Source: Oligoflexia bacterium (GTDB lineage: Bacteria > Bdellovibrionota > UBA1018 > CAIMNF01). From it: a DNA stretch of 64,000 bases. Positions 11,221 through 16,132 of this stretch are shown here, in pieces. The notes beneath the pieces are model-generated. The model made no database searches and was not told where the DNA came from. It saw nothing but the letters and a program-made list of their open reading frames with translations. The position numbers were made by a program, and so were the translations under genes. Numbering within the stretch: the stretch's first letter is position 1; each line of letters starts with the position of its first letter. The stretch lies in the NCBI GenBank assembly GCA_903845155.1, contig CAIMWN010000239.1, positions 6,498 to 70,497 on the forward strand. Reading direction: 5' to 3'.

Positions 11221-11416
11221 ACATCCTCATCGGCGTGGTTCTCTTATATATTAAGCCTATCTCGGGCTACTTTGTTGAGATTTATATTCTGTTTTCATAA
11301 TCTTTTTGATTGATAACATGTTGTAATTACGAAGTTATTATTACTTGATGTTTTTAATCAAAATGAACAGGTCCATGCGCGTTGCGTTACTTGACGCATT
11401 GTAGTATGTTTTGGCT

Positions 11417-12622
11417 ATGGAAATGGTTGAAACTACGCGCACTCAAACTTCACCCGAGCAGATCTTTGCCCCCGAAATGATTGAACTCAAATCCCGCCTT
11501 GCAACTCATGCCGATGTATTCAAGATCATGGAATTGTATCAAGCAATTTACGGTGGAGCTTATCGCGATCCACTCATGAATGACTTCAGTGTGATGAAGA
11601 AATTCCTAGAGAATAAAAATAATTTTTGGTTTTTGGGTGAGGTCGATGGCGAAGTCATCGCTTCTGTGGTGGTCCGCTATGACCCTGAAAACCTGCTCGC
11701 TAAAGCATTTGGCGCTGTGGTGACTGAGAACTATCGTCGTCACGGACTCATGGAACAACACTTAAGTTATGCCATTGCTTACGTTCAAACAAATACTGCT
11801 GGTGTGGATGCTCTCTACGCAACCACGCGAACAGTACATGAAGGCGCTCAAGCACTCACTGAACGTCTTGGCTTCAAAAAACTTGGAATCTTTCCTAACT
11901 CCCACAAGAATGTTGATTACGAAACGCATTGCCTTGCCTCTGTATTCTCAAAAGACACTCTCAGCAAAAGAGTTTCCGATTATAAACTGCATGAGCGCCT
12001 TAAAGGGCTCCTTGATATTGTCGCAATAGAACTGCCGACATTGAAAAACTTTGAAACGATTGTGCCCGATGCCCCCAGCCGCACTCTGGTAAGCCCACCC
12101 GAATTAGAAATGATCGAGTCTGAACACTTTGTAAAATATCGCTATGAAAAACTGAAACGAGACCAAGCACTTCAGTTTGCATTTTTCCCTTTTCATGAGC
12201 CCAACGTGATGGTGTTAAGCCCAGATCAAACTATAGAGATTTTTTGTTTCCACTCAAGGCAGGATGGTTATTCCGTCATTCTTGGAGGAAAAGTCAGCAA
12301 TGAGATTAACTTCACCGACCTATTCAATGCAATTGCAAATCTTTTAAGAGAACATCAAGCCCGTTACGTTGAAACGATTGTTCGTGCGGATAAGCCTAAA
12401 ATTATTGATTCAATTTTAAAAGCCAGGTTTATTCCGAGTGCCTTTTTTCCGGCATTTCAATTACACAACGGAAAACGCTATGACTATGTCATCATGAGCA
12501 AAACTTTCGAGGTCTTTGATTTTCAAAATATCAAACTCAAAGGTCTCAATCAAAAATACCTTGAAGAATATTACCGCCAGTGGAAACAAACCTCTCTTAA
12601 TCCAAAGTTATTAGATGTATGA
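11417..12622 (+). CDS. tandem GNAT-fold protein, putative acyl/acetyltransferase (ATG at 11417; a TTG at 11411 is also possible)
   Basis: Two halves each end in a GNAT-like motif-B stretch: ...VHEGAQALTERLGFKKLG and ...YVETIVRADKPKIIDSILKARFIP. The N-half has a motif-A-like YRRHGLMEQHL. First gene of a tightly coupled three-gene operon. Confidence 0.45.
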   Translation: MEMVETTRTQTSPEQIFAPEMIELKSRLATHADVFKIMELYQAIYGGAYRDPLMNDFSVMKKFLENKNNFWFLGEVDGEVIASVVVRYDPENLLAKAFGAVVTENYRRHGLMEQHLSYAIAYVQTNTAGVDALYATTRTVHEGAQALTERLGFKKLGIFPNSHKNVDYETHCLASVFSKDTLSKRVSDYKLHERLKGLLDIVAIELPTLKNFETIVPDAPSRTLVSPPELEMIESEHFVKYRYEKLKRDQALQFAFFPFHEPNVMVLSPDQTIEIFCFHSRQDGYSVILGGKVSNEINFTDLFNAIANLLREHQARYVETIVRADKPKIIDSILKARFIPSAFFPAFQLHNGKRYDYVIMSKTFEVFDFQNIKLKGLNQKYLEEYYRQWKQTSLNPKLLDV

Positions 12623-13742: not shown

Positions 13743-16115
13743 ATGTACCTTTTTGGTGAACTCACTTCAATCTCTGATCACGAAGTTAACGAAGAAACCC
13801 ACGGCATCGTTGCACGCGCGGACGAAAAACGCCTCGCGTTTCAAACGATCAAGATCAATGAGGTGATTGATGTCCTAGATCGTTTTTCTAAGCAATGGGT
13901 GTGCGGCTCTCCACTTTTTGAAGATGCATTGAATGGTTTGCAAAAGGAAATCTCCTTCTCGACTGAGACCATCAAGGAAACACTGAGCATTATCCCGCAA
14001 CTCCTTTCCAGGGAAGTGCTGACTCAAAGAATCGAAGCCGAGCTTGGAAGCTTAAGTGTTCTAGACGAATTTACTCATGCGCCCCATTTTGATGGCCGGG
14101 TTAAGGCTTTTCCTTTAGGAACCCTTCTCCACGTTTCGGCTGGCAATGTTTTCTTGGGGTGTATTGATTCATTGCTGATGGGCTTTCTTACCAAGAATAT
14201 CTCCATCATTAAACTCAGTTCAAAAAATCAATTTTTCCCTCAATTCTTTGCTGAGGCCCTGAGGGCGTTTGATCAATCTTCAATTTTGTCTGACAAATTT
14301 TGCCTTCTCACGTGGCGCGGTGGCAAAAGCCCACTTGAGGTTTTTTTTAAGAATAATGTAAAGGGCATCATTGCTTGGGGCGGGGAAGAAATGCAAGAAG
14401 AGTACCGAAAGGGCCTGCCCTCTTCGGTAAAACTTTTTGATTATGGGCCAAAAATTTCAATTCAAGTATTGAGCAAACCAGCGTTTGAAGGGCTCGGCGT
14501 GGAATCAATCGCTTCCAACATTGCAAAGGACATTTGTATTTGGGACCAAAGTGCGTGCGCGTCTCCACAGAATTTATTTATAGAATCTGGAGTGGATGTT
14601 AAAAAGTTAATCAAATCACTTTCTCAGGCCCTTACCCATTATCCCCTCAAGCGCGGAGAACTCTCGTCAGACGAAGCGGTTGAAATATTAAAAGAGGAAC
14701 AGCGAGCAAAACTGAACTTAGTCAGCAATCACGGGTACTACGAAAAAGGGAAGGATTTCCTGATCCATTTCGACCCGCACCCCTACCTTCGCCCCTCCCC
14801 GTTAAATAGAACATTGATCATTAAAGAGTTTAAAGACCAGACTGATTTGGTAAATCAGTTAAAAGACTTTTCCTTTTATCTCCAGTCGTGCAGCTACGCT
14901 CTTTTAGATCAAGAAAAGGATGTATATTTAAATGCTTTGAGCTTAATCGGCATGAAGAGATTTTCCCCCCTGGGAACTATTATGAATGGCTTGGTCGGCG
15001 CTCCCCATGACGGACGCTACGGGCTCCGAGAGCTTGTTCAGTATATTCCAGACGAAAGAACGCTGAATATATCTAAAAATGGTTACTTTTTTGCTTCCGG
15101 CGGCACTACCGGAAATCCTAAATTTAGTTTTTATTCATTTTCAGAGTTTAGAGTTGCTACGAGCATGATCGCATTTAATTTCGAGGTTCAAGGACTTAAA
15201 CCAGGTATGATTTGCGCTAATCTTTTTGCTCCGGGGCAGATGTGGTCGTCCTTTCTTGCAGTGGATAAGGCTCTTGAATCATTGAATGTCGTTCAACTCC
15301 CCATCGGTGGCGCAACTGATCCTCATCTTATACTAAGCTATTTGGAGCGGTTTTCGGCCGAAGTAATATTGGGAATTCCAAGTCTCATCATTGAGCTCGC
15401 CGAATTTACACAGAAAACTAAATCTAAATATAAACCAAAAATGGTTTTTTATGCCGGTGAGCAATTGAACGCAACTGCGCGCACTTACTTAGAATCCATC
15501 TGGTCTCCTGATTATATTGGTTCTGCAGCATATGCTTCGGTAGATGCTGGCGTAATCGGCTACCAATGCATTCACTCACTCCCAGGGGAACATCATTTGT
15601 TTTCAAAGAATATTGAACTCGAAATTATAAATGACGAGGCGGTGGTGAGCGCTCCTTATCGGAAGTCGACTCCAGTGAATCATCTCCCCACGGGTGATGC
15701 GGTGGTTTGGGTTAAAGAGCCTTGCTTGTGTCAGTCCAAAGATCCTAAATTTAAGATTTTGGGCCGCATCGATTCTCGAATGAATGTTTTTGGCTGTCGC
15801 TTAACCTTGCTTGAGATTGAAGAAGGAATTAAGGCTTCAGGACACCCTTTTCACACCTACCAATTGCAAATTCAAACCCACGTAGATGAGTTTGGATCTC
15901 CTCAAGATCAAGTAACACTCGCAGTGGAAACTGCGAAGCATTACGATGGGAATAGATTACTTCAATCCATTTATTCGTCAACCGTAGACGTCAAGAAGAC
16001 CATTTCATTTGAAAAATTTTGTCGGCATTTTAAAATTAGCCAATTTCCACTTCACTCGCTTGCGCGAAATCCACGAACAGGTAAAATTAAAGCCATTTTG
16101 GATTTGCGCATCTAA
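13743..16115 (+). CDS. fusion protein: N-terminal LuxC-like acyl-CoA reductase domain plus C-terminal PaaK/LuxE-like adenylating domain
   Basis: 790 aa. The N-half has ...LHVSAGNVFLG... and the catalytic-Cys-like motif DQSACASPQNLFIE (LuxC has ...AC.SPQ). The C-half has ASGGTTGNPKFSFYS (the PaaK SSGTTGKPK-like motif) and ...ILGRIDSRMNVFGCRL (PaaK has GR.DDM.I.RGVNVFP). Confidence 0.55.
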   Translation: MYLFGELTSISDHEVNEETHGIVARADEKRLAFQTIKINEVIDVLDRFSKQWVCGSPLFEDALNGLQKEISFSTETIKETLSIIPQLLSREVLTQRIEAELGSLSVLDEFTHAPHFDGRVKAFPLGTLLHVSAGNVFLGCIDSLLMGFLTKNISIIKLSSKNQFFPQFFAEALRAFDQSSILSDKFCLLTWRGGKSPLEVFFKNNVKGIIAWGGEEMQEEYRKGLPSSVKLFDYGPKISIQVLSKPAFEGLGVESIASNIAKDICIWDQSACASPQNLFIESGVDVKKLIKSLSQALTHYPLKRGELSSDEAVEILKEEQRAKLNLVSNHGYYEKGKDFLIHFDPHPYLRPSPLNRTLIIKEFKDQTDLVNQLKDFSFYLQSCSYALLDQEKDVYLNALSLIGMKRFSPLGTIMNGLVGAPHDGRYGLRELVQYIPDERTLNISKNGYFFASGGTTGNPKFSFYSFSEFRVATSMIAFNFEVQGLKPGMICANLFAPGQMWSSFLAVDKALESLNVVQLPIGGATDPHLILSYLERFSAEVILGIPSLIIELAEFTQKTKSKYKPKMVFYAGEQLNATARTYLESIWSPDYIGSAAYASVDAGVIGYQCIHSLPGEHHLFSKNIELEIINDEAVVSAPYRKSTPVNHLPTGDAVVWVKEPCLCQSKDPKFKILGRIDSRMNVFGCRLTLLEIEEGIKASGHPFHTYQLQIQTHVDEFGSPQDQVTLAVETAKHYDGNRLLQSIYSSTVDVKKTISFEKFCRHFKISQFPLHSLARNPRTGKIKAILDLRI

Positions 16116-16132
16116 TCTCGCGAGCACGAACT

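Follow-up and report, generated by a model that had tools for sequence, protein, structure and literature searches.

A three-gene LuxE/LuxC-type operon of Bdellovibrionota, a distant and incomplete relative of the leupeptin operon leupABCD

Small peptide aldehydes are made by at least two kinds of machinery. The first is the operon leupABCD, which yields the protease inhibitor leupeptin with no classical peptide synthetase involved, which summaries of Li et al. (2020, Angew. Chem. 59:17872) in PMC8283571 and PMC11212599 place in Klebsiella, Photorhabdus, and Xenorhabdus, and whose genes serve as a marker for Klebsiella michiganensis (Cosic et al., PMC8283571). This pathway activates and reduces amino-acid or peptide carboxylates instead of fatty acids. 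The second comprises modular nonribosomal peptide synthetases (NRPS) with a terminal reductase domain, which make antipain, livipeptin, and the pyrazinone-forming dipeptide aldehydes. A related chemistry operates in the fatty-acid reductase complex LuxC-LuxE (PDB 7xc6), where the acid is adenylated, held as a thioester by the C-terminal Cys of LuxE, passed to a Cys of LuxC, and reduced with NADPH to the aldehyde (PMC9157457). Here we describe an operon of three genes (positions 11417 to 16115) in a 64-kb window, i.e., the whole stretch of 64,000 nucleotides that was analyzed, from contig CAIMWN010000239.1 of an Oligoflexia bacterium (Bdellovibrionota), taken here to be a predator of the class Bacteriovoracia. 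We conclude that the operon is a distant, incomplete relative of leupABCD and that it probably makes no lipid but a small aldehyde derived from an acylated amino acid or peptide. In the specific form that we favor and consider reasonably probable, it belongs to the leup-type family, has three genes and no exporter, and would make an N-acylated amino-acid or short-peptide aldehyde without an NRPS.

We found no description in the literature of a LuxC, LuxE, and GNAT trio, nor of the domain content of the Leup proteins; matches in papers on galactosyrin and a lanthanide siderophore mention lux reporters only. The leup genes were instead reached through plasmids. When the third protein of the operon, a LuxC-PaaK fusion, was searched with tblastn against annotated plasmids, full-length fusions of about 25% identity were found on linear plasmids of Streptomycetaceae and on two Salmonella plasmids. 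One of these, the Salmonella IncF plasmid CP053580, carries a 121-aa remnant, a LuxE-like gene, the fusion, and a PaaK-family ligase. Used as a query, its fusion led to hundreds of K. michiganensis genomes that encode 66%-identical proteins, a distribution that agrees with the one published for the leupeptin genes (PMC8283571). A K. michiganensis-type scaffold (L072) encodes, in order, a major facilitator superfamily (MFS) protein, a LuxE-like protein (375 aa), a LuxC-plus-AMP-ligase fusion (801 aa), a PaaK-like ligase (444 aa), and a GNAT protein (305 aa). The primers leupA_f and leupB_r match this scaffold with 0 mismatches (6924-6944 on the plus strand and 8139-8158 on the minus strand), and the predicted amplicon of 1,235 bp is the same as that published (PMC8283571, Table 1). 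The four genes span 5,826 bp, compared to the published 5,831 bp of leupABCD, and a transporter precedes them, as in the published map (PMC8283571). From primer match, amplicon size, gene span, and transporter, we therefore infer that leupA encodes the LuxE-like protein, leupB the LuxC-PaaK fusion, leupC the PaaK-like ligase, and leupD the GNAT protein. The initial annotation of the window operon could name no characterized system of this composition. The exact primer matches identify leupABCD as the equivalent enzyme set, so the operon does match a characterized pathway in part: the kinship is there, in a distant and incomplete version.

All three window genes lie on the plus strand. The first (11417..12622), the counterpart of leupD, encodes a tandem-GNAT protein of 401 aa from the ATG used by gene callers; an alternative TTG start at 11411, two codons upstream, gives 403 aa. 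The second (12619..13740), a leupA homolog, encodes a LuxE-family acyl-protein synthetase of 373 aa. The third (13743..16115), a leupB homolog, encodes a 790-aa protein in which a LuxC-type acyl-thioester reductase is fused to a PaaK-like adenylate-forming ligase. The genes are tightly packed, as initially described: the stop of the GNAT gene and the start of the LuxE-like gene overlap by 4 bp (ATGA), and the TAA stop of the latter is followed by a 2-nt gap (TT) and the ATG of the fusion gene. The interval first assigned to the operon, 11221-16132, does contain it and is slightly generous, as it takes in the intergenic region 11221-11416 and the spacer 16116-16132. The original family assignments (GNAT, LuxE, LuxC, and PaaK-like) agree with Pfam and NCBIfam profiles, and the motifs TSSGTGGTK, SACASPQ, SGGTTGNPK, and LGRIDS are all found. 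Like the window operon, leupABCD combines free-standing enzymes in one operon, among them a LuxE-family protein (LeupA) and a GNAT (LeupD), and homology to Leup proteins is significant for every window gene.

The strongest link to leupB is the fusion protein. Its LuxC half (aldehyde dehydrogenase superfamily; 13845..15068, plus strand, aa 35-442) spans the Pfam LuxC model PF05893 from one end to the other (positions 3-400 of 401, aa 35-433, E 4.9e-70; 236.9 bits against a gathering threshold of 21). The LuxC equivalog of NCBIfam (of the pair NF052251/NF052244) gives 129 bits and does not reach its cut-off of 750. The stretch DQSACASPQ, with the SACASPQ motif at aa 270 and the catalytic Cys272 (codon 14556-14558, plus strand), aligns with DQQACFSTQ of LuxC (7xc6_A), and HVSAGNV, which is kept in all orthologs and in the LeupB clade, aligns with HLLAGNV of LuxC. 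The catalytic-Cys-like motif of the initial annotation has held up, as Cys272 is invariant in 21 orthologs and throughout the LeupB clade. The PaaK-like adenylation/ligase half (15087..16112, plus strand, aa 449-790) has a weak match to Pfam AMP-binding (aa 452-587) and matches the NCBIfam profiles of PaaK and DVU1553-type ligases at E about 1e-9 (aa 449-789). It begins at the P-loop, without the first ~80-95 residues of PaaK (profile position 80; residue 98 of 2y4o). The best solved-structure matches for the whole fusion are LuxC of 7xc6 and PaaK 2y4o. Among the ligase motifs are the P-loop SGGTTGNPK (aa 452), LGRIDS (aa 673), and GK781 (Lys781 codon 16083-16085, plus strand). SGGTxGxPK, YASVDAG, TGD, GRxD, and GK781 are invariant in the 21 orthologs, and an alignment of ten sequences from the window clade to the LeupB clade retains Cys272, both P-loop glycines, the Arg of GRxD, and Lys781.

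LeupB has the same construction, a LuxC domain and then a PaaK-like domain with equivalent catalytic Cys, P-loop, and Lys. The window fusion can be aligned co-linearly over its full length with LeupB and with its Kitasatospora, Salmonella, and Chromobacterium homologs, all with identical domain order. In a tblastn search against the window, LeupB aa 73-709 fall on 14013-15788 as one segment (E 1e-52). Taken separately, the LuxC half is 27% identical to LeupB (E 5e-33) and the ligase half 28% identical to LeupB and LeupC (E 1e-24 to 1e-26), a range that becomes 28-31% (E 1e-24 to 1e-31) when the free ligase of Kitasatospora is included. The fusion had been called unusual. It belongs, on the contrary, to a large family with full-length relatives in the hundreds: relatives fall into 2,388 clusters (50% identity) at E<=0.001 and 289 at E<=1e-30, and most of the best 150 are 780-900 aa long with both domains matched.

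Two further features of the fusion deserve mention. In the PaaK-like domain, the cluster Cys609/Cys661-x-Cys663 together with His618 (window 15567-15731) shows no variation between the window clade and the LeupB clade. These residues may bind a metal; we know of no such site in PaaK. The window fusion also has the shortest inter-domain linker of its family (window 15060-15090). In relatives (e.g., L055 9986-12604 and P0041), the LuxC domain and the P-loop are separated by a further 30-60 residues, which resemble a vestige of the PaaK N-terminal region.

The LuxE-like protein matches Pfam LuxE PF04443 over aa 7-365 (E 1.7e-39; 136.3 bits against a gathering threshold of 24.9), while the LuxE equivalog of the same NCBIfam pair gives 97 bits, under its cut-off of 550. 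Its motifs are intact, including the P-loop TSSGTGGTK (aa 93), GGGWK (aa 231), KGC (aa 361), and GR. The predicted acyl-thioester carrier, Cys363 (codon 13705..13707, plus strand), lies in HKGC, which aligns with QKGC of LuxE, and corresponds to Cys364 of Photobacterium phosphoreum LuxE, the residue within the TRxxKGCxLS motif that carries the acyl thioester (PMC9157457). Similarity is detected both to LuxE (7xc6_E; phmmer, E 1.5e-24, 90 bits) and to LeupA (33% over 368 aa, E 3.5e-60) and the Kitasatospora homolog (33%, E 3e-70). The blastp scores against the latter two, 189-216 bits, are about twice the phmmer score against LuxE, a comparison that is only indicative because the methods differ. 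By BLASTP, the free LuxE-like protein has no detectable similarity to the PaaK-like domain of the fusion, and thus the two are not recent duplicates.

Homology between the tandem-GNAT protein and LeupD is less direct. The N-terminal GNAT domain (11489..11947, plus strand, aa 25-177) matches Pfam Acetyltransf_1 at aa 38-155 (E 1.4e-10) and has an R107-x-x-G signature at the position of the acyl-coenzyme A (CoA) pyrophosphate-binding motif. In a multiple alignment, Arg107 is unchanged from the window clade through to LeupD. The C-terminal GNAT-fold domain (12107..12592, plus strand, aa about 231-392) is cryptic in sequence: it is without a CoA-binding signature, has zero Pfam matches, and shows no profile similarity to the N-terminal half (hhalign probability 0.2%). 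The two GNAT folds of the initial annotation were thus borne out by predicted structure only, in which the chain has a VipF/MshD-like tandem architecture. Both halves are kept across related loci, and the C-terminal domain appears to be the better conserved of the two. It could function in acceptor binding, partner docking, or catalysis. The window GNAT aligns over its full length with the GNAT of a Kitasatospora cluster (27%, E 6e-44, 382 aa aligned), which in turn matches the N-terminal domain of LeupD (E 9e-7); blastp gave no direct match between the window GNAT and LeupD. Their homology is therefore transitive, through the Kitasatospora protein, with N-domain invariants common to all in the multiple alignment. 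LeupD aligns with the N-terminal domain plus only part of the C-terminal domain. As the tandem form is common to Bdellovibrionota and Actinomycetota, it may be ancestral and LeupD a truncated form, a polarity suggested by distribution and not by a tree.

The bridge to leupABCD is provided by five-gene clusters on plasmids of Kitasatospora sp. NBC_00070 (L070, 3920-11280) and Streptomyces sp. NBC_01426 (L074, 1635-9268), for which we found no characterization in the literature. They encode a PaaK-family ligase, an MFS exporter, a 378-aa GNAT, an "acyl-protein synthase," and an "acyl-CoA reductase." Like the window operon, they have a tandem GNAT followed directly by the LuxE-like gene and then the fusion; unlike it, they include two further genes upstream, for a LeupC-type ligase and an MFS exporter. 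Identity of the Kitasatospora proteins is 54% to LeupA and 39% to each of LeupB and LeupC; the cluster proteins are much closer to these Leup proteins (39-54%) than to the window proteins (25-33%). Since they match LeupA, LeupB, and LeupC, and since their GNAT matches both the LeupD N-terminal domain and the window GNAT, these clusters connect the two systems.

RefSeq gives the fusion of these plasmids the Gene Ontology term "bioluminescence," which is probably misleading. The Salmonella enterica conjugative IncF plasmid CP053580 (L071, 7272-12554) has leupA, leupB, and leupC homologs that are 74%, 66%, and 66% identical to those of K. michiganensis. It is without leupD, its 121-aa remnant is of the leup MFS gene, and an HlyD/peptidase-ABC exporter pair lies within a few kb. 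Its gene content suggests a leupeptin cluster, carried by a mobile element, that has decayed or been rearranged.

The trio is conserved well beyond the window. A pattern scan over one genome per species, with an alignment as query, returned 64 loci; a single fusion protein as query had given none. The gene order is kept in about 60 species-level genomes, mainly of Bacteriovoracia and Oligoflexia. Most loci are labeled Bacteriovoracaceae, Halobacteriovoraceae, Bacteriovorax, or Peredibacter (including the cultured Peredibacter sp. HCB2-198, with the trio on NZ_CP174607.1 around 409-432 kb; a further cultured carrier is P. starrii), others are labeled Oligoflexales or Oligoflexia, and single metagenome-assembled genomes (MAGs) are labeled Elusimicrobiales, Cloacimonadota, and UBP17. 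Every related locus with sufficient upstream DNA has the order GNAT, LuxE-like, fusion, so the arrangement is not a matter of chance. The flanks behave differently. A TonB_2-like gene and a PBP1A gene adjoin the trio only in the window and its closest relative, L005 (61% identity), and are replaced by unrelated housekeeping genes in all other lineages. In distant lineages the Pfam-classified neighbors include an aldolase, topoisomerase I, a XerC-like integrase, DacB, flagellin, and a histidine kinase, and clustering of the surrounding open reading frames found no gene that travels with the trio beyond family-level synteny. With order constant and flanks unrelated, the trio is best viewed as a self-contained module, and its TonB/PBP1A context is uninformative on function. 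The lipid or envelope-related product first proposed is accordingly not upheld.

A 2-oxoglutarate (2OG)-Fe(II) oxygenase, an ABC-F protein, and an H+-pyrophosphatase were considered as partners of the trio and rejected: they reflect synteny within Bacteriovoracaceae only and are gone in Oligoflexales, Elusimicrobiales, and Cloacimonadota. The oxygenase gene (PF13532) is divergent from the trio and just upstream of it in most Bacteriovoracaceae loci (L003, 4826-5650, and about 40 others). It is not found beside the trio in the window, where the TonB_2-like gene takes its place, or in more distant lineages. The enzyme may act in tailoring, or its position may be due to synteny alone. A Deltaproteobacteria MAG (L069, 8743-11218) has a plain pair of LuxE-like and LuxC-like genes (24-28% identity) without a GNAT or fused ligase, which shows that an unfused pair also exists in uncultured lineages.

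From this gene inventory, we infer the chemical steps, substrates, and product as follows. The N-terminal GNAT domain would N-acylate an amino acid from acyl-CoA, much as LeupD is presumed to acetylate leucine. The fused PaaK-like domain would then adenylate a carboxylate and make an amide bond between it and the amine of a second amino acid. The LuxE-like enzyme would adenylate the terminal carboxylate and hold the resulting thioester on its own C-terminal Cys363. Finally, the acyl group would pass to Cys272 of the LuxC domain, where NAD(P)H would reduce it to the aldehyde in the manner of LuxC-LuxE (PMC9157457). The general logic of acid activation, reduction to an aldehyde, and N-acylation had been set out in the initial annotation, and we judge it sound. 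Because the operon has one ligase domain, compared to two in leupABCD, the expected product would be one residue shorter than leupeptin. It would be an N-acyl dipeptide aldehyde or, should the ligase have some other function, an N-acyl amino aldehyde. Only if the single ligase acted twice could the product be leupeptin. In product class and possible role, the prediction agrees with the NRPS-made peptide aldehydes; the enzymology differs entirely, as the operon has no carrier protein or condensation domain. Leupeptin gives pyrazinone derivatives (PMC11480411), and we speculate by analogy that the product here might be a protease inhibitor, the precursor of a pyrazinone signal, or both. A bolder version of the scheme has the second GNAT-fold domain replace LeupC as the catalyst of amide-bond formation, using an enzyme-bound thioester or acyl-adenylate in place of acyl-CoA, so that the trio is a minimal assembly line sufficient in itself, with the peptide aldehyde or pyrazinone serving as a conserved regulator of the predatory life cycle in Bacteriovoracia that, for example, controls the predator's own secreted proteases or those of its prey. 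We regard this version as doubtful.

Several observations weigh against a leup-type function. Identity between window and Leup proteins is only 19-33%, and the substrates may therefore differ completely. No free LeupC-type ligase was found: LeupC and its Kitasatospora and Salmonella counterparts, as queries, match only the fused domain in the 64-kb window, and no extra ligase adjoins the trio in about 60 related loci. Nor was an exporter found, as the Leup and Kitasatospora MFS queries match nothing in the window and none adjoins the trio at the related loci. The GNAT gene is first in the window operon and last in leupABCD. Its product has 401 aa and a complete second GNAT-fold domain, whereas LeupD has 305 aa and a truncated C-terminal part. 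The genomic context is core chromosomal and housekeeping, not that of a typical secondary-metabolite island, and the host belongs to the Bdellovibrionota, whereas those of leupABCD are Gammaproteobacteria. In addition, the assignment of Leup enzymes to steps draws on domain content and on a one-sentence summary in another paper.

The alternative that fares best is a Lux-like fatty-acid reductase, in which LuxE and LuxC make a fatty aldehyde while the GNAT and the second ligase build an N-acyl lipid or envelope metabolite. The strong Pfam matches to LuxC and LuxE, the 7xc6 complex as nearest solved structure, and the position of the window operon between a TonB_2-like gene and PBP1A are all compatible with such a pathway, and the window residues line up with the catalytic core of the 7xc6 chains. 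Unlike LuxC-LuxE, however, the operon has a second adenylating domain fused to LuxC and a GNAT partner, features that are common to leup clusters and not to lux operons. The luxD acyltransferase and luxAB luciferase genes are absent from the three-gene operon. Given that the closest characterized relatives and the architecture are leup-type, that the equivalog scores are very low, and that the envelope neighbors are not conserved, we consider this alternative unlikely. The substrate is probably not a fatty acid.

It is also conceivable that the operon carries out transfer rather than reduction: the LuxC domain would hold an acyl-thioester that the tandem GNAT passes to an amine, so that an amide would be formed and no aldehyde released. 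A highly conserved second GNAT-fold domain without a CoA-binding signature could accept an enzyme-bound thioester, and another amide-forming catalyst would be useful where the second leupABCD ligase is missing. Against this, the LuxC domain is complete with respect to the Pfam model, and its conserved stretches, including HVSAGNV, persist in the orthologs and the LeupB clade. We know of no GNAT that takes a protein-Cys thioester as donor. The LuxC-type domain of LeupB is, moreover, credited with aldehyde formation in the brief summary of the pathway that we have drawn on, and we think a transfer-only operon quite improbable. A surface-glycan acyl-modification cassette, in which the LuxC/LuxE pair supplies an unusual acyl group to an amino sugar, seems very improbable: such pairs are known from flagellin glycosylation islands of Aeromonas and enterobacteria and from O-antigen clusters (PMC7874193, PMC4875605), and a flagellin gene adjoins the trio in one Oligoflexales locus (L042), but this neighbor is confined to one lineage, and the expected companions (acyl carrier protein, FabG, AMP-ligase, pse or other sugar-biosynthesis genes, and glycosyltransferases) are found neither in the window nor near the trio in any of the about 60 related loci.

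If the operon is a leup-type pathway, as we favor, the pathway type itself is one already characterized in 2020. What is new is a version with three genes, without LeupC or an exporter and with a tandem GNAT first, in predatory hosts and on the core chromosome. The logic of free-standing ligase and LuxE/LuxC enzymes would extend from a few gammaproteobacterial pathogens to predatory Bdellovibrionota, to Streptomycetaceae through the bridging clusters, and to other phyla through a few outlier genomes, and a set of three genes appears to form its core. Predatory bacteria depend on many different proteases. If confirmed, a small-molecule protease inhibitor or pyrazinone signal that is conserved and encoded on the chromosome would be a testable addition to predation biology, and the trio would offer a compact means, in three genes, of making peptide aldehydes. 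With the genes of leupABCD assigned to families, hundreds of annotations as "long-chain-fatty-acyl-CoA reductase" or "bioluminescence" that are probably wrong can also be renamed.

In the window, the trio is flanked by the TonB_2-like gene (10372-11220, minus strand, divergent), gcvP, the PBP1A gene, and a gene for an FtsJ/S4 methyltransferase, and a 17-bp spacer (16116-16132) separates the fusion gene from the convergent PBP1A gene. The presumed promoter lies in the 196 bp that separate the operon from the divergent TonB_2-like gene (11221..11416). The region contains a weak sigma-70-like match at 11313-11341 (9/12); sigma-70-like sites there show no excess over shuffled sequence, and a terminator scan was likewise no better than shuffled sequence. 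Elsewhere in the window (44105-54335) is a row of dnaA (44105-45580), dnaN (46013-47164), recF (47175-48359), gyrB (48356-50770), and gyrA (51837-54335). Cumulative GC skew has its minimum at about 46-48 kb, where GC content falls to 0.365, and this stretch is probably the chromosomal replication origin.

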